From a virus, in the UHGV virus genome UHGV-0155908: DNA of 11,632 nt; one strand, given 5' to 3'. Below are positions 2,062-7,759 of the stretch, piece after piece; the stretch's first letter is position 1; the number at the start of each line of letters is the position of its first letter. A model generated the notes under the pieces. That model was not told the DNA's origin. It made no database searches and saw only the letters and a list, made by a program, of their open reading frames with translations. The position numbers and the translations under genes are program-made.

Positions 2062-3045
2062 TTATTTATCAAGAGTAGGGGTTATCTTGATCTTTCTATC
2101 ATAGACAAGAACTTGAGATTCAGTTTTGTGACCGCTGAACTTCTGTTTATCTCTGGAAGAGCCTTCGTAGTCAGAAATGCTTTTAGCCTTCAGATCATGA
2201 AATGTGCAATCCAGAGGTCTTCCTAGATGGTTAGCTGCTGCTGCTCTTGCTTTTCGCCATGCCTCGTTAAACCCTTTGTAAGAGTAACGTTCTCCATACA
2301 TCGTTTTTATGACCGCACCATCTTCTCCCCATGCTCGACACCGATTCACTGCTGTTCGTAAACGTTCAGTCCATGCTTTTATTTGCTTAACACCCGTTTT
2401 GCCTTGCTGGATGAAAATCCCTTCATCCATTATCTGGGACCAATCCATCTTCAGAACATCGGATACCCTCGCTGCACACAGGTAAGCTATTTCCATTGCG
2501 GCTTTAACCGGTTCACTGGCGTGTTCATAAATCGCCAGGTATTCTTCATCCGTGATGTAGCGATCACGCTTTGGTTTTGGAAACTTGTCCACTCCTACAC
2601 ATGGATTACCAGGAACGAAGCCACGTTGATACCCCCAGCGATAAACTCGAGACATCGAGCTATGTTCATGGTTGGCCTGGACACGGCTTTTCTTTCCTCT
2701 GGCATCCATGTAGCGTCTGACATGTTCTGGCTTAATGGCTTTAGCCTCAGCATCACCGAAAACAGCCAGCAGATATTTTTCATGAGCCAGATAGTCTTTC
2801 TGTGTTCGCGGGGCTAAAGCTGCATAATCCGTGCTGTTTAGGAACTTCTTCCATAATTGGGAAAAGGTAAGTATATTTTTCCTGCCTTCAACCACCTTCT
2901 CAAAAGCGATCCATACCTCTGATTTTGAGGCGCCGGCAGGTGCCAGTTTTTCTGTTGTTCCACCTGGTTTCCAGTAATAACCAGAAGGGCGAAAGAAAAC
3001 GCCCTTTGGCATCCACTCGTTACCGGGTGCTCGTTTGCGACCCAT
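2062..3045 (-). CDS. int: tyrosine site-specific integrase, lambda Int family
   Basis: 327 aa. N-terminus MGRKRAPGNEW...PSGYYW parallels lambda Int MGRRRSHERRDLPPNLYIRNNGYYCYRD (arm-binding domain). Central QQGKTGVKQIKAW parallels lambda EQSKTGVKIAIP. C-terminus FHDLKAKSISDYEGS...GHKTESQVLVYDRK parallels lambda FHELRSLSARLYEKQ...GHKSDTMASQYRDDR, including the catalytic Tyr. Comparison is from recalled lambda sequence, not an alignment tool. Confidence 0.93.
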   Translation of the reverse strand: MGRKRAPGNEWMPKGVFFRPSGYYWKPGGTTEKLAPAGASKSEVWIAFEKVVEGRKNILTFSQLWKKFLNSTDYAALAPRTQKDYLAHEKYLLAVFGDAEAKAIKPEHVRRYMDARGKKSRVQANHEHSSMSRVYRWGYQRGFVPGNPCVGVDKFPKPKRDRYITDEEYLAIYEHASEPVKAAMEIAYLCAARVSDVLKMDWSQIMDEGIFIQQGKTGVKQIKAWTERLRTAVNRCRAWGEDGAVIKTMYGERYSYKGFNEAWRKARAAAANHLGRPLDCTFHDLKAKSISDYEGSSRDKQKFSGHKTESQVLVYDRKIKITPTLDK

Positions 3046-3049
3046 AATT

Positions 3050-3271
3050 TCACTCTATTGCGTTGAAGTTCATGCCCGGAGTGGGCAGAGACCCTGCTGG
3101 TGGATTTAACCTGAATGGATGATTTATATGATACCAAGTGGTTTTAACTGCACCATCGCGGCGTTCAATAAAATAAATACCATTCTGAGTTAAAACTTCT
3201 TTTTGCAGAGACTTCTGTGGTGATCCAGTAGCTTCTGCAAGTTCGTCATCAGTTAGGAAACGATCGCTCAT
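3050..3271 (-). CDS. xis: putative excisionase / directionality factor (by position; sequence unlike lambda Xis)
   Basis: 73-aa ORF immediately upstream of int on the same strand (stop 3052-3050, int ATG 3045-3043). GGAGA lies 7 nt upstream of its ATG. Small and basic/aromatic. Function is inferred from the conserved xis-int arrangement only. Confidence 0.6.
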   Translation of the reverse strand: MSDRFLTDDELAEATGSPQKSLQKEVLTQNGIYFIERRDGAVKTTWYHINHPFRLNPPAGSLPTPGMNFNAIE

Positions 3272-3329
3272 GAGACGTTCTCCACTTAGCCCAGCTGCAC
3301 CCAGGCTGTAACATCAAACAACGATCCGA

Positions 3330-3446
3330 CTAGTGCCATAGAGTTGCGATAATGCACCGAACTGTGGGCGTCTTTTTGTTGTTACCTTTGGCTATTTCAG
3401 CGCTAGTAGTGTTGGGGTGAGCCTGGAGATATTCAAATACGTTCAT
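3330..3446 (-). CDS. small ORF, 38 aa (MNVFEYLQAHPNTTSAEIAKGNNKKTPTVRCIIATLWH), possible small HTH protein
   Basis: Translated by hand; below the track size cut-off. Its ATG (3446-3444) overlaps the stop of the upstream small ORF in an ATGA arrangement. The segment TTSAEIAKG resembles an HTH start. Weak SD (AAAGG). Confidence 0.3.
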   Translation of the reverse strand: MNVFEYLQAHPNTTSAEIAKGNNKKTPTVRCIIATLWH

Positions 3447-3619
3447 GGCGTTTTACCTTTACGTTCCTGTTCCAGTTGCACCAGAGACTCTTTTAATGCT
3501 GCGAACGTAGCGTCCAGTCTGGTGGCGACTTCGCGCATAAGCGGTGCATGTTTTGGTGGTAATTCAGTAACGGAGGCAAAAGCCTCCGCTACGAGCTCTT
3601 TAACCTTCATGCGGCGCAT
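3443..3619 (-). CDS. small ORF, 58 aa (MRRMKVKELVAEAFASVTELPPKHAPLMREVATRLDATFAALKESLVQLEQERKGKTP), predicted helical
   Basis: Translated by hand; below the track size cut-off. GGTGGAG lies 8 nt upstream of the ATG at 3619; an alternative ATG at 3610 overlaps the upstream gene's stop as ATGA. It fills the otherwise empty 3272-3606 gap on the early-left strand. The + strand track ORF 3417..3644 is its antisense shadow. Confidence 0.35.
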   Translation of the reverse strand: MRRMKVKELVAEAFASVTELPPKHAPLMREVATRLDATFAALKESLVQLEQERKGKTP

Positions 3620-4146
3620 TGGCGCAGCTCCACCAGTTCGTTAAAGCGATTCATGAACAGGCCATAGGCTTGACCAGGACGGAGAGGGATGACCTGAACG
3701 AGATCAGAGCAGGGAATACCTTCGAGAATTTCCCACTTCGAACCGTCATCGATTTCCAGATCACGGCGCTCGGTGGCTAACATGGTGAGATCGGCATATT
3801 TCACGACAGCAGCTTGTTCAAGAGAGATACCGAATTTAAAGCGGATAAGACCATCAACATAAGTTTCCATGCGCTGGTAGTCAGGCAGCAATGCTTTGAG
3901 CTGGGCCGGAATATCCTGGCAATATGCCTCCGCAGCGTCGTGCATCAGCGCTTCAAAGGCGAACTCTGGCGGCACAATCTGGCTTACAAGCACAGAGTGC
4001 TGGGCTACGCTGTAGAACTCTGGCAGATGCCCAGCGAATCGACAGATGTTGGAAAGAGCAGTCGCGATATCCTCAACATCGATATCGTCGATTGTGGCGG
4101 TCAGGTAGTTAAATTTTTTACCGGATAATGTCTGAATGTAGCTCAT
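3607..4146 (-). CDS. HD-domain phosphohydrolase (YfdR-like, putative 5'-deoxynucleotidase)
   Basis: Track ORF 3607..4173 trimmed to the Met at 4146, which has GGAGA 6 nt upstream. His...HD signature (AGHLPEFYSVAQHS ... LMHDAAEAY) typical of the HD superfamily. At 179 aa and adjacent to the large upstream protein it matches my recollection of yfdR in E. coli cryptic prophage CPS-53/KplE1. Confidence 0.75.
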   Translation of the reverse strand: MSYIQTLSGKKFNYLTATIDDIDVEDIATALSNICRFAGHLPEFYSVAQHSVLVSQIVPPEFAFEALMHDAAEAYCQDIPAQLKALLPDYQRMETYVDGLIRFKFGISLEQAAVVKYADLTMLATERRDLEIDDGSKWEILEGIPCSDLVQVIPLRPGQAYGLFMNRFNELVELRQCAA

Positions 4147-4274: not shown

Positions 4275-5102
4275 TTAGGCTTTAAAGTTACCGATGAAAG
4301 TTTCCACTGATTCACCTTCGAACTTGCTGATCAGCAAATCGCGGAATTCGTTGGCGATCTCTTCTTCCTTGGCTTCAAGTTGGACGATGCGCAGAACAAA
4401 GCAGGGTTCATCGCTGGTCAGCAAGCTGTTACGCAAGCTAAAGCGGCGTTCACCCAGACCTTCATACGGCACACATTTGAATTCAAACGCCACAGGCATT
4501 ACGTCTTTGCTGCTTGCTTCAACGCTTTGCATCAGGGATTTTTTACCAGCGAAATCACCAGTTTCATGGTCCTGCTGTGTTGCTTGCTGAATAGTGATAC
4601 GACGCACAGCCTGAGCTGCCTGGGAAATCTGCATCGTATTGCCATCAGCATCAAACGCCAGAAGGTAATCGCTCCAGTCTTCCAGCCATTCAGCGATTTG
4701 CTTTTGCTTCAGACGTTGACCATCGATCTGCAGTAACGCGCGGAATGGGGCGGTTTTCTTCAGGGTGATCGAAGCAACGTTATCTGCGTGACCGGGATTA
4801 TCCAGGGTGCCGATGTTGAACACTGAACGAGCGGTCATGTTGTCAGCATCAATGAAGCAACGGGCTGGATCGCTGGCGCTGGCGTAACCTATAGAATAAC
4901 GTGCGAAATCTTCAATACTGGTTGTTGTCATTGCACCACGGAAGCGGAAACGCTCCAGAGAAAAGCGCTCAAGGCTTTCAACGCTAGTACCATCTGGCAG
5001 CAATGCGGTCGGGCAAGCCAGACCATGAATATCATCCAGGTGGTAGCCAGAAAGGACCAGGTCTTTTACCTGCTGAAATGTACCGCTATCTAACTGAGAC
5101 AT
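4275..5102 (-). CDS. hypothetical phage protein, 275 aa (recalled as DUF2303 / YfdQ-like; unverified)
   Basis: 275-aa ORF with AAGGAA SD upstream; protein-like composition. Size and position directly upstream of the HD hydrolase match the yfdQ-yfdR pair as I recall it. Family assignment is from memory, not from a search. Confidence 0.7.
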   Translation of the reverse strand: MSQLDSGTFQQVKDLVLSGYHLDDIHGLACPTALLPDGTSVESLERFSLERFRFRGAMTTTSIEDFARYSIGYASASDPARCFIDADNMTARSVFNIGTLDNPGHADNVASITLKKTAPFRALLQIDGQRLKQKQIAEWLEDWSDYLLAFDADGNTMQISQAAQAVRRITIQQATQQDHETGDFAGKKSLMQSVEASSKDVMPVAFEFKCVPYEGLGERRFSLRNSLLTSDEPCFVLRIVQLEAKEEEIANEFRDLLISKFEGESVETFIGNFKA

Positions 5103-5158: not shown

Positions 5159-5530
5159 TCACTGAGCCGCTTTAAGCTTTCCATCCACCGCGCCAGTGAT
5201 CCCGAACAGCTGACCCTGATCTTCCTGCAGGATGGTGAGCTTCCCGCCTTTGTTGACCCACATCGGGGTTTCGGTTGTGTCCTCTTCGGAGGCTTTACCA
5301 CGCGGTGTTGGGGTGCTGTAGTTCAGCTTGTGCTTGATCTTGACGCGCTTCTCTTCAACGGAATTACCCATGCGCTCAAAATCAAATGTGAGGACTACTT
5401 TGCCTTTGTTGCCGTTGTTCAGAACGCCAAGCGCGGTGGTATTAAGTGCTGCCGCGATTTTGTTCATGAACACGCCGGCATCCAGTTCGCCAAGAAAATC
5501 TGGCACTACGGTCATGCGGTCATTACTCAT
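5159..5530 (-). CDS. hypothetical early-left protein, 123 aa (possibly YfdP-like)
   Basis: ORF with GAGGG SD 7 nt upstream of its ATG; protein-like composition; first ORF downstream of the long noncoding tract on the pL strand. Confidence 0.6.
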   Translation of the reverse strand: MSNDRMTVVPDFLGELDAGVFMNKIAAALNTTALGVLNNGNKGKVVLTFDFERMGNSVEEKRVKIKHKLNYSTPTPRGKASEEDTTETPMWVNKGGKLTILQEDQGQLFGITGAVDGKLKAAQ

Positions 5531-6711
5531 GGTTTTACCCTCGTTAAGGCGGCTGCAACCGCCGAACTTTCTCCATACACAACAGAGAAGAGCACCTGCA
5601 TTGGTCGGCGGCTTGCAGGGACCGCTTTCTTTTTGCCCGGGTGGATTGGGTTATGAGCCCGTCGCCCGGTGATGCTCTTTTCTGTTGCGTAAAAAGGGCG
5701 GTACCGAGGTAGAACATTATCTTCGTCCCCCTTGCATAAGGTTGAAGGCCCAGGTACCGCCAAGACTACACACATGGAACTACGGTTATCACAGTCCTAA
5801 GCGTGATTTGGTTGTGGTTGCTGGTGCTGAACTCCAGCTCAGTGGCGCGGTGTTTCAATATCGTAACCGCCCGTTCCATCCGCGTTCGATCAGTCCGTAT
5901 GCTCGCTTAGAACGTTTCGCCTGCTTATCTTTTCTCAACCGTTTGACGGTCAGCCCCGCCATTCACCACAACGAAGAGAGCACTGCCGGTATCCGAATTG
6001 AACGGACCTTTTCGTTGCCCATCACCGCTATCTGTATAGCGGTGGCAGGGATTGAACCTGCCGTTATGCCTTGCTCGTCAATGCTCTCATCGTTGTGTGC
6101 TGACCTTACAGCCAGCATGGTTGGAATGAAGACGCATCACGACTTTTCACCAACTGGGCGGGATCACCATGAAAGAGCCGCCCCTTTAGCCTTTCATGCT
6201 CCCCATCTTTCTAGGTAGTCAATGCCTCCAGTTGGGCATACAACCTTCGGTTATCGCTCCGTCGTCAGCGCCACTCTCCAGGACATTTATAAGGACCGTC
6301 TCCAAGTGGTAACTCTTCCAGTCCCGGTAAGCATCCTGCGAGATGCTTACCATGACCGGCTGATCTTCCCTGAAAAAGGCTGGCGGTTACCGGACAAACG
6401 GGAAAACACCGGGCCGCCAGAACAGGGAGTTACTTGTTATTGCTTTGGCCTGCTTTTAACCACATCAGGCGCGGTGGTAGGTATCTTCGGGCGGGGTGCT
6501 AAGGGGGTGATTAGCCCTTGCCCTTAACACTCCTGCTGGTTTTGGTATTCCTGGCTTGGGTATCGCCACCAGCTATAGGAATTTGACTACGAGTTGCGGT
6601 TAATCAGGCCGCGCCTCTGTTACCCCTCCCGAAGACACCTGTCAGCGAATCATCCGGTTATTCATATGCCACCGGCGGCTACTTCGTGGGCGTCCTGCCT
6701 GTTCGCTGTTG
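5531..6711 (-). other. ORF-poor, GC-rich, hairpin-rich tract between putative pL and the first early-left gene; candidate large structured RNA or leader
   Basis: No minus-strand ORF of 60 aa or more across about 1.2 kb (only 5527..5775, rejected). Perfect hairpins at 6023-6044 (9 bp stem, 4-nt loop), 6326-6351 (10 bp stem, 6-nt loop) and 6380-6420 (7 bp outer plus 4 bp inner stem). On the minus strand 6045-6061 reads GCAGG-TTCAATC-CCTGC, a tRNA T-arm-like stem-loop. GC about 58% in a sampled 60-nt stretch. Confidence 0.3.
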
Positions 6712-6719
6712 ATGAATAA

Positions 6720-6748
6720 AATCTAACTTAACTTAGCTTTTAGATCAA
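6720..6748 (-). promoter_or_regulatory. putative pL-type early leftward promoter
   Basis: On the minus strand: TTGATC (-35; + coordinates 6743-6748), 17-nt spacer, TAGATT (-10; 6720-6725). Lies just beyond the 3' end of the repressor gene and overlaps the operator repeats. Confidence 0.4.
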
Positions 6749-6774
6749 GAAAAAACACCAAACTATTCTTAGCT
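6721..6774. promoter_or_regulatory. OL-type operator repeats (CTTAGCT half-sites)
   Basis: ATCTAActtaACTTAGCT at 6721-6738 matches the OR copy at 7503-7520 in 15 of 18 positions. Inverted ends ATCTAA (6721-6726) and TTAGAT (6740-6745). A second CTTAGCT at 6768-6774. Confidence 0.45.
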
Positions 6775-6802
6775 TGATGTTAAGAGGAAGGTTAGAGGTG
6801 GG

Positions 6803-7429
6803 TTAAAGCTCGTACTGAACGCCTTTGACAACGCCGATGATCAGGCAATTACCGTTAATTGAAATGTTTGGATAGCGTGGATTTAAGGGAACTAAGAACT
6901 TTTGAGGCCCATCGATGACAAGTTTTTTTACAGTAGCCTCGTTTGTCCCATCAAGCCTGGCTACGACTATCTTTCCATGAAGTGGCTCTGCATCTGGATC
7001 TACTATGACTGTTGCCCCTTCAGGGATTGTCGGGAGGCCATTAGGGTTTGTCATCGAATCACCTTTAACCTCCAATGCAAAGGAGCTATCCCCTATGCGG
7101 AGTGATGTCTCTATCCACTTATCTACTTCGCTGAAAACTTCTGCTGCTTTACATTCTGTAAACTGTCCAGCCTGAACCCAGGATATCACCGGAATCCTTC
7201 GCATCTTGGTTATCAGATTGCCTTCAAATTCAGTGCCATAAAGTATGTAATCAATTGATGTGTTGAAATACTTTGCAAGTTTCGCAAGTGACTCGCCTCC
7301 AGGCACATTAACGTCTTTTTCCCAATACCCAACCGCCACATCACTAACACCGCAGAACTTACCCAGTTCTTTCTGCGAGGTTTTGGTTATGCGCCTGAGA
7401 GCTTTGATGCGCTGACCGACAGTTTCCAT
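6803..7429 (-). CDS. cI: CI-like prophage repressor (HTH plus LexA/S24-type autocleavage domain)
   Basis: 208 aa. N-terminal HTH (QKELGKFCGVSDVAVGYWEKD). C-terminal GDSMTNPNGLPTIPEGATVIVDPDAEPLHGKIVVARLDG...KKLV...LVPLNPRYP closely parallels lambda CI [40 protein letters not shown]...KKLI...LQPLNPQYP. An Ala-Gly (WVQAGQ) candidate cleavage site is present. Confidence 0.92.
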   Translation of the reverse strand: METVGQRIKALRRITKTSQKELGKFCGVSDVAVGYWEKDVNVPGGESLAKLAKYFNTSIDYILYGTEFEGNLITKMRRIPVISWVQAGQFTECKAAEVFSEVDKWIETSLRIGDSSFALEVKGDSMTNPNGLPTIPEGATVIVDPDAEPLHGKIVVARLDGTNEATVKKLVIDGPQKFLVPLNPRYPNISINGNCLIIGVVKGVQYEL

Positions 7430-7531: not shown

Positions 7532-7759
7532 ATGACAACCGATGATATTGAAAACTACTTCGGCAGTACTGAGAAGGTTGCCGAATTTTTTGGAATCACA
7601 AGCGAGGCTGTTTACCAGTGGCGTAATAGAACTGGTCGCCTTATCCCAAAAGGGCGTGCAGCTGAAGCAGCATATCGAACCGGGGGGAAATTGGTTTTTC
7701 ATCCCGACCTTTACGAAAAGCGTAGCGATGCTTCAGTAAAACTCAAACCACAGGAATAA
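7532..7759 (+). CDS. cro: Cro-like HTH regulator
   Basis: 75 aa, divergent from cI across the operator region, strong SD. Segment GSTEKVAEFFGITSEAVYQWRN resembles the lambda Cro HTH [21 protein letters not shown]. Confidence 0.8.
   Translation: MTTDDIENYFGSTEKVAEFFGITSEAVYQWRNRTGRLIPKGRAAEAAYRTGGKLVFHPDLYEKRSDASVKLKPQE

Follow-up and report, generated by a model that had tools for sequence, protein, structure and literature searches.

Between a leftward early promoter (pL) and the first early-left gene, yfdP, the 11,632-nt stretch of viral DNA analysed here (UHGV virus genome UHGV-0155908; hereafter the window) carries a tract, 5531-6711, which is a collinear string of independently folding, conserved RNA modules and makes up the noncoding first part of the early-left (pL) transcription unit. 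Along the minus strand the order is a 66-nt leader, C, T1, M5, A, M3, T2 and B, followed by the first gene. A first-pass annotation, made from the sequence alone, had proposed a large structured noncoding RNA here; the structured, noncoding and conserved nature of the tract was borne out, but what had been taken as one large fold is a mosaic of at least eight separable modules. The tRNA-like character of some of these modules, and the stalk that they share, were not recognised in that annotation. None of the modules belongs to a catalogued RNA family (Rfam 15). When the Rfam check that had been proposed for the tract was run, no family was matched: the whole window gave no hit at the gathering threshold, and permissive searches of the window and its sub-regions returned sub-threshold, microRNA-like noise only; the structured-RNA status is supported instead by compensatory changes.

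Comparison of the tract with phage records and approximately 300 fetched loci revealed the same conserved blocks in varying combinations in Escherichia, Salmonella, Shigella, Klebsiella, Citrobacter, Edwardsiella and Stx phages, where they occupy the same cI-to-first-gene gap and are likewise unannotated. Subsets of the modules lie in the same order in ST64B, SfV, phiNP, Stx2 phages and LLS (all of Enterobacterales). When marker motifs were ordered in 259 loci, 58 architectures were obtained, every one of them collinear, with the universal order of leader, C, T1, M5, stalk modules (class 4, A and others), B and first gene; the window is the fullest form seen. Relative to two E. coli prophages it has 672 bp extra (5688-6359), and the edges of this block are the U-runs after T1 and T2. 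Per E. coli genome the median was one place, with 1758 of 1766 places being chromosomal and the two matches that were inspected lying in prophages; a miniature inverted-repeat transposable element (MITE) or a dispersed repeat such as ERIC or REP was rejected because of this single copy. We found no published description of these RNA elements, and preprints on the Pas small RNA (sRNA) and on the Salmonella prophage transcriptome do not treat the locus.

The fold energies of modules A and B stand well below those of dinucleotide shuffles (z = -5.9 and -4.8, respectively). In the supported helices, G·U pairs greatly outnumber A·C pairs (57 versus 11 in module A, 44 versus 7 in the leader), which identifies the minus strand, that of pL transcription, as the strand that folds; the same strand is indicated by epsilon15-like phages, in which a same-strand tRNA-Arg(UCU) shares its first 3-4 nt with the 3' end of the module A stalk. 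All three hairpins picked out in the first-pass annotation are real, and each is part of a conserved element: that at 6023-6044 is helix P3 of module A, which has the strongest covariation of any helix; that at 6326-6351 is the conserved hairpin of M5, in which GGUAAG/CUUACC alternates with GCUAAG/CUUAGC; and that at 6380-6420 is the GC stem of T1, after which the minus strand reads CCUUUUU. The tract had also been called GC-rich, which holds only as a modest excess (0.51-0.55, versus 0.44 in the adjoining cI and promoter region).

That no convincing coding sequence lies between pL and the first early gene was confirmed, as 5531-6711 contains no conserved open reading frame (ORF) and no N-like ORF. 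A Pfam search of the tract ORFs gave no match, and a PHROG search gave weak matches only, to tiny families without known function. The four longest ORFs, 5685-6218 and 6222-6527 on the plus strand and 5527-5775 and 5963-6118 on the minus strand, are broken by stops or frameshifts in homologs of 83-97% identity, with the control, yfdP, intact in 58 of 58. The suggestion that the tract holds heavily decayed protein genes (N, kil or recombination genes) could draw on the 177-aa plus-strand ORF and several others of 44-101 aa, on the weak PHROG matches, and on relatives that hold a real gene in the gap (a ClpX-type zinc-finger protein; SfV orf33). It was rejected, and we regard it as scarcely credible, given the null Pfam search, the interruptions even in homologs of 90-97% identity, indel lengths that are not multiples of three, and substitutions that are paired across helices. 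The PHROG families and RefSeq 'hypothetical proteins' called in the gap are probably spurious ORF calls over structured RNA. One of them, phrog_33599, matches the minus-strand translation at 5547-5717 (E = 1e-9 over 23 residues).

Stalk-closed modules and their partial likeness to tRNA

A stalk of 17-20 bp closes both module A and module B. It consists of a basal helix, CACAAC(R)/(Y)GUUGUG, a small internal loop and an upper helix. The latter usually reads (A/G)AGAGCAYUG/CARUGCUCU, and it covaries between loci (GAGAGCA/UGCUCUC, AAGCGCA/UGCGCUU, AAUAUCA/UGAUAUU, AGUUCAC/GUGUACU). When the fetched loci were scanned for the stalk signature, these ends were seen to enclose cargos of at least 15 classes, 58-176 nt in length.

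Module A (5967-6097, minus strand) is a cloverleaf-like four-way junction in which P1 is the stalk, P2 (6044-6062) a T-arm, P3 (6024-6043) a variable hairpin and P4 (5991-6007) another T-arm. Immediately 5' of it lies hairpin P0 (6099-6116, minus strand), which also covaries between loci (CCUGG/CCAGG, CCUCG/CGAGG, CCGG/CCGG). In an alignment of 34 distinct sequences with 39 pairs (alignment A5), 90.6% of cells were paired, versus 35-53% in slid controls; 17 pairs, comprising 120 cells, were compensatory, a value reached by none of 500 shuffles. Pairing in P3 is kept with entirely different sequences, and the junctions of the module are invariant. The T-arm of tRNA has the consensus G53-UUCRANY-C61 (U54, U55, C56, R57, A58), and both P2 (GCWGG-UUCRAUY-CCWGM) and P4 (GUCCG-UUCRAUU-CGGAC) conform to it in 34 of 34 sequences. 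Module A, together with M5, also occurs in epsilon15-like Uetakevirus phages (L004, L134, L143, L190) and in phage PAT1 (L007); the site in the epsilon15-like phages is a noncoding gap of 0.6-1.1 kb between terminase-side and head genes, with neither pL nor cI. Hammerhead-like strings in module A (GAUGAG, UGACGAG...GAAA) were considered and discarded, their stems being out of register and Rfam finding no ribozyme.

Two known RNAs resemble module A in layout. In YrlA, one of the modular bacterial Y RNAs that Ro60/Rsr binds, a long terminal stem encloses a tRNA-like domain with T, acceptor-like and D stem-loops in succession, and YrlA-type RNAs are also found in phages (PMC4201824). As in YrlA, the 5' and 3' ends of module A form a stem, and a T-arm is followed by a hairpin of variable sequence; unlike YrlA, it has a second T-arm where the D-arm would stand and lacks the GNCGAAN0-1G motif, its 5' strand reading CAACGAUGAG. 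No TROVE/rsr gene is present among the window ORFs, and the Rfam YrlA model, run on 186 nt with a cutoff as loose as E<=10, hit nothing. Membership of the YrlA/Y RNAs was rejected, since a similar layout is accompanied by neither the motif, the D-arm, the rsr neighbour nor a model hit. The species 1 and 2 RNAs of phage T4 are stable, small, structured RNAs that are co-transcribed with tRNAs and processed beside them. The abutment of the module A stalk on tRNA-Arg in epsilon15-like phages is of the same kind, although host and phage group differ, the window has no tRNA, and the comparison is one of layout alone.

Module B (5578-5689, minus strand) consists of the stalk, P1, enclosing a hairpin with the apex CGGGCUCAUAACCC (5648-5661) and a second, optional hairpin. 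Over its 14 nt, CGGGCUCAUAACCC matches the anticodon stem-loop of metZ, an initiator tRNA of E. coli, without a difference (0 of 200 shuffles). The module was found in 65 distinct versions, with CAU invariant in all 65, and its stalk covaries (GAGCA/UGCUC with GGGCA/UGCCC; ACAGA/UCUGU with ACACA/UGUGU). It is always the final module, whether the first gene is of the YfdP or the RdgC type. A leader hairpin whose apex copies an anticodon stem-loop, here that of tRNA-fMet, is also seen in the thrS operator; in contrast to that operator, the module B apex sits within a closed stalk, some 110 nt 5' of the start codon, and the genes downstream (YfdP, RdgC) are unrelated to methionine or initiation. 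Between module B and yfdP is a linker region (5538-5577, minus strand) comprising the conserved linker UAUGGAGAAAG, a hairpin, CGGCGG-UUGCAG-CCGCC (5548-5564; fold -11 kcal/mol), which covaries (e.g., CGACC/GGUCG), and the yfdP ribosome-binding site (RBS), GAGGG (5538-5542). Two candidate arrangements in this region were rejected. A kissing interaction of the module B loop (CUCAUAA) with the start codon of the first gene was dismissed because loop variants do not covary with codon context. A 10-codon upstream ORF at 5544-5576 on the minus strand (AUG GAG AAA GUU CGG CGG UUG CAG CCG CCU UAA, encoding MEKVRRLQPP), which spans the linker and its hairpin, was not retained, as other linker types have GUG or run into the gene and it is probably not conserved.

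Elsewhere, a giant tRNA-like element lies between stalk modules (L198:6640-6790; L202:5865-5990; L176, minus strand; L058; L171; L212; L213; L231). It has a 7-bp acceptor stem, UGUGGUG/CACCACA, followed by U8-A9, a D-arm, UAGCUCAAAUGGAUAGAGC, and a T-arm, with a short GC hairpin replacing the anticodon arm and an insert of about 60 nt containing the invariant UAUCUCAUGCGGC. ARAGORN did not call this element, which the window lacks. The 3' strand of a stalk overlaps the 5' acceptor strand of the neighbouring giant element by 3-4 nt in several related loci, just as it does with tRNA-Arg. In the window the stalk 3' strands, at 5967-5984 and 5578-5596, read GUGCUCUCUUCGUUGUGG and GUGCUCUUCUCUGUUGUGUAUGG, respectively, and recall a boxA followed by a GU-rich, boxC-like run; the boxA of rrn operons and lambda is UGCUCUU..., and boxC lies in the 16S processing stalk of rrn operons.

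The pL leader, the terminator-like hairpins and modules C, M5 and M3

The pL promoter/operator region (6715-6750, minus strand), as read from the sequence, has a -35 element TTGATC (6743-6748) and a -10 element TAGATT (6720-6725). Its match to sigma70 is only 8/12 here, and the same position scores 9-11/12 in related loci. In 56 of 73 distinct upstream regions, which comprise at least 8 unrelated operator/promoter types, the best sigma70 -10 ends 15-18 nt before the sequence GAACAGG; because this spacing is fixed, the leader can be placed at about +5 to +8 of the pL RNA.

The 66-nt leader (6643-6708, minus strand) is composed of a closing stem, a GGC-AGGAC-GCC hairpin, the conserved single strand CACGAAGUAGC and a second hairpin. 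Its covariance model, R1, scores 98.1 bits on the window (E = 3e-31). Across 34 distinct sequences 95.9% of cells were paired, and 6 pairs with 37 cells were compensatory, which none of 500 shuffles reached. Covariation is found in the closing stem, where G-C alternates with A-U, and in the second hairpin (CCGG/CCGG, CCUGG/CCAGG, CCCGG/CCGGG, CCCCA/UGGGG); the sequence of the leader is nearly invariant. An exact 27-mer of the leader was found in 37 contigs, nearly all of them from Enterobacterales, where it spans more than a dozen genera (among them Xenorhabdus, Photorhabdus, Yersinia, Serratia, Erwinia, Pectobacterium, Citrobacter, Enterobacter, Kosakonia, Kluyvera, Raoultella and Phytobacter). 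The 27-mer, with full covariance-model matches (87 bits), is also present in an assembly of Chryseobacterium sp. (L283) and a metagenome-assembled genome (MAG) of Lachnospiraceae (L288), most likely through contamination or mis-binning.

Two terminator-like elements lie downstream on the minus strand. T1 (6371-6420) comprises the stem CUGGCGG...CCGCCAG (6380-6420) and a CCUUUUU run (6371-6379), with a fold of -20.3 kcal/mol; in other loci it is directly 5' of a stalk module, and it forms the recombination junction relative to the E. coli loci L001 and L002. T2 (5691-5761), directly 5' of module B, comprises the stem GGCGGUACC...GGUACCGCC (5697-5761) and a CUUUUU run (5691-5696), with a fold of -27.1 kcal/mol. 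Both have a GC stem and a run of five U on the transcribed strand, but their stems are interrupted and their loops large or branched. Compact equivalents, each a hairpin plus U-run, occupy the same positions in L202 and LLS, and the SfV record annotates terminators within the equivalent gap.

Modules C, M5 and M3, all on the minus strand, are conserved and predicted to be structured, with fewer informative substitutions. Module C (6478-6640, about 165 nt) has an imperfect long-range stem of 26 nt, an inverted repeat pairing 6472-6497 with 6622-6647; its 17 distinct homologs are nearly identical but for a small number of changes, some of them compensatory. Some relatives have a protein gene in the module C slot, namely a ClpX C4-type zinc-finger protein (L001:3468-3833), SfV orf33 (L194) or the 80-aa ORF mEp390_036 (L010), from which it appears that RNA and protein cargos alternate at this position. 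M5 (6100-6364) contains a hairpin at 6318-6359, a conserved core, GGGACUGGAAGAGUUACCACUUGGAGACGGUCC, and a 3' domain; over 288 nt it shares 89% identity with a gap, without annotation, in the epsilon15-like phage PAT1, with compensatory changes in the alignment. M3 (5785-5966) is 83% identical over 199 nt to phage 15G, whose divergent copy displays four compensatory pairs.

Candidate functions of the array

The function that we lean towards, with modest confidence, is that of a processed, partly tRNA-mimicking RNA array preceded by a put-like or attenuating leader. After derepression, polymerase starting at pL would make the 66-nt leader first, and the leader would, much as put does, influence elongation or read-through; that it hardly varies across Enterobacterales suggests contact with a conserved host machine. 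T1 and T2 may then meter the transcription that reaches the genes, and may also set the ends of abundant short RNAs. The CACAAC...GUUGUG stalks would serve as processing handles for RNases of the host that cut double strands or process tRNA: RNase III, or RNase P at stalks next to a tRNA, could free the cargos as small, stable RNAs, and the mRNA downstream would acquire a defined 5' end. Stalks cut by RNase III are known from rRNA precursor stems, the R sites of T7 early mRNA and the lambda N leader. Like these, the stalks here are helices (17-20 bp, with an internal loop) that flank structured RNA and are repeated on one transcript; they differ in their conserved CACAAC/GUUGUG ends, which RNase III does not need, and cleavage here is putative. 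The freed cargos would mimic parts of tRNA, A presenting two T-arms in a cloverleaf and B the anticodon arm of initiator tRNA, and their targets in trans might be tRNA-binding proteins of the host; the likeliest role is that of decoys for nucleases or enzymes directed at tRNA. T-arm minihelices suffice for recognition by TruB and TrmA, enteric VapC toxins cleave the anticodon arm of initiator tRNA, and the region that phages transcribe first is where they keep counter-defence functions. Modules A and B may thus be RNA-only accessory or host-takeover functions at the start of the phage's first transcript.

A bolder proposal, which we hold to be doubtful, is that 'RNA cassettes', marked by the CACAAC...GUUGUG stalk, form a system of exchange, in which cargos excised by host RNases would act in trans as an RNA-only counter-defence arsenal shuffled between phages. 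Temperate phages of Enterobacterales would carry the variable array of at least 15 structured cargos at the head of the early-left transcript or, in epsilon15-like phages, beside tRNA genes. Several cargos copy tRNA parts (the cloverleaf with two T-arms, the anticodon arm of initiator tRNA and the giant tRNA-like element); they would be decoys or inhibitors of tRNA-directed immune nucleases and tRNA enzymes, and would be shuffled as protein anti-defence genes are.

For the leader, the first-pass annotation had put forward an antitermination or processing element of the put type in place of N. The position just after pL, the two terminator-like hairpins downstream and the lack of an N-like ORF agree with this. 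In the paper describing LLS, N is reported as absent and a put-like mechanism is speculated for this phage group (PMC12315714). Phage HK022 has two put RNAs, putL after pL and putR after pR; its putL is encoded right after the early promoter, is about 70 nt long and has several stems; put RNA renders RNA polymerase resistant to terminators through the zinc-binding domain of beta', and a -10-like hexamer in putL has been proposed to cause a sigma-dependent pause that aids folding (PMC9378689). The leader is alike in its size of about 66 nt, in having three helices with conserved single strands, in lying directly after pL of an N-less lambdoid phage with terminator-like hairpins downstream, and in an extreme conservation that is compatible with binding of a conserved host enzyme. 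Its 3' part also contains an invariant hexamer of the NANNAT (-10-like) form, GAUGAU (6649-6654, within GGAUGAUUCG), although the position of the hexamer differs from that in putL.

A number of results weigh against the function that we favour. The leader gave no match to the HK022 immunity region, with putL read from locus L193, either by blastn-short or with the calibrated model R1; the window has no second, pR-side copy, and each related phage has one copy, always on the pL side. The leader is missing from the viable phage LLS and from Stx2a_1447, mEp390 and EPP-1, all of which still have stalk modules, and LLS, the only one of the four that was read through, keeps T1- and T2-like hairpins; the leader therefore cannot be a general antiterminator, and its put-like role is a plausible lead, not a finding. 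A terminator consensus scan called neither T1 nor T2, whose atypically large or branched hairpins have fold z-scores of only -1.6 and -2.1, respectively. The likeness to tRNA is partial, as module A has two T-arms but neither a D-arm nor an anticodon loop, and module B has loop variants with C33 and U37. ARAGORN found no gene in the window, its relaxed-threshold, intron, tmRNA and mitochondrial modes giving noise only; the Rfam tRNA model had no hit at E<=10, and the YrlA and tmRNA models were also null. Finally, the alignments were gathered with conserved sequence patterns as seeds and consist mostly of close relatives, so that the apparent invariance of the seeded segments is inflated and the shuffle tests overstate significance.

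In LLS itself (L300, PQ299149.1), positions 3000-3640 contain the pL operators of the window, with the leader and module C missing, and follow the order pL, T1-like hairpin, class-4 stalk module, T2-like hairpin and module B. Since LLS grows on E. coli K-12 and has been published, it is a ready experimental model.

The main rival of the processed array, which we consider possible but no better than tentative, is a purely cis-acting leader, whereby the tract would control its own operon only, without trans-acting RNAs: the terminators would attenuate, the leader or the stalks would counter termination or pausing, and the stalks with the final hairpin would determine how stable the mRNA is and how the first gene is translated. 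Such a leader would account for an array that always lies between pL and the first gene in a fixed order, with B last and then linker, hairpin and RBS, for the two terminator-like hairpins, and for the position of the 66-nt leader at the 5' end of the transcript; the put-like control proposed for LLS (PMC12315714) also belongs here. It fits poorly with the presence of A and M5 in epsilon15-like phages beside tRNA-Arg, between terminase and head genes, where no pL or cI is near. The cargo, moreover, is freely swapped and the stalk alone is kept, which is hard to reconcile with a single regulatory logic; attenuation does not need mimicry of a T-arm or anticodon arm; and the module B loop does not covary with the context of the start codon.

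The two other rivals concern what the repeats and tRNA fragments are. The repeats, which on the DNA read CACAAC...GTTGTG, could be sites of recombination or cassette exchange (attC-like single-stranded DNA folds) or mosaic boundaries, with the modules as passengers. The R''/R' boxes of attC have the consensus RYYYAAC/GTTRRRY, to which the stalk ends fit at 6 of 7 positions, and the layout of a basal helix, an unpaired centre, a second helix and a variable tip is also that of attC. As in integrons, imperfect inverted repeats of 60-140 nt with conserved ends and a variable tip stand in arrays whose content can be exchanged; mosaicism is high both between the stalks and inside them, and one insertion junction falls at a stalk/U-run border. 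We nevertheless judge DNA-level elements to be quite improbable, as the window has no ORF cassettes and no integron integrase (IntI), its only recombinase being the phage integrase at 2062-3045. The consensus T-loops, the D-arm of the giant element and the overlap of stalks with same-strand tRNA starts favour function as RNA, the single copy per E. coli genome speaks against MITEs, and the non-stalk modules (leader, C and M5) are conserved as well. That the modules are functionless relics of a phage tRNA gene cluster, made up of decaying pseudo-tRNAs and spacers, is very improbable. The fragments of T-arms and of an fMet anticodon arm, the genuine tRNA-Arg genes that adjoin modules in some phages and the failure of ARAGORN to call the modules speak for such relics; against them stand strong cross-genus conservation with substitutions that are compensatory, not random, invariant junction sequences, an ordered architecture kept in hundreds of loci, and structures that are alternative, well-paired folds and not broken cloverleaves.

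Genomic setting and wider meaning

The window covers the left arm of a lambdoid prophage of the ST64B/phiNP/LLS type, together with its immunity region. From left to right it encodes an integrase (Phage_integrase; 2062-3045, minus strand), a DUF4224 protein, a 188-aa ORF, YfdQ/DUF2303 (4275-5102) and yfdP (sb37; 5159-5530, minus strand), the first early-left gene; beyond the tract and pL lie a LexA-like cI repressor (6803-7429, minus strand) with Peptidase_S24 and helix-turn-helix (HTH) domains, a P22-type Cro (7532-7759, plus strand) and a CII-like protein. An intrinsic terminator that ends cI just upstream of pL was called by the terminator scan at 6754-6781 (minus strand; fold -12.3 kcal/mol, z = -4.0, with UUUUUU after the stem). 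The order cI, gap, yfdP, yfdQ is common to ST64B, Citrobacter phage phiNP, Stx2a_1447, SfV and E. coli phage LLS, and the equivalent gap in these relatives is 0.6-1.0 kb and either unannotated or covered by short 'hypothetical' calls only. To the left of the integrase, positions 1-2060 have a GC content of 33-37% and two plus-strand ORFs (263 and 221 aa) without a Pfam match; this stretch may belong to the flanking host DNA, or may be an island of cargo or defence genes past the attachment site.

With these results, an unannotated gap of 0.8-1.3 kb that is present in ST64B, SfV, phiNP, several Stx2-converting phages, LLS and many Enterobacterales prophages, and that is carried by prophages in about 28% of complete E. 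coli genomes, becomes a set of defined, testable RNA motifs. Several of the PHROG 'protein families' assigned to the gap are probably not proteins. The motifs bear on how N-less lambdoid phages other than HK022 pass their early terminators, for which the leader, T1/T2 and the stalks are candidates, and for which LLS is a cautionary counter-example. If it is true that the tRNA-like cargos act in trans, they would represent a phage strategy that uses RNA mimics of tRNA parts, and would be relevant to the growing list of defence systems that cleave tRNA.

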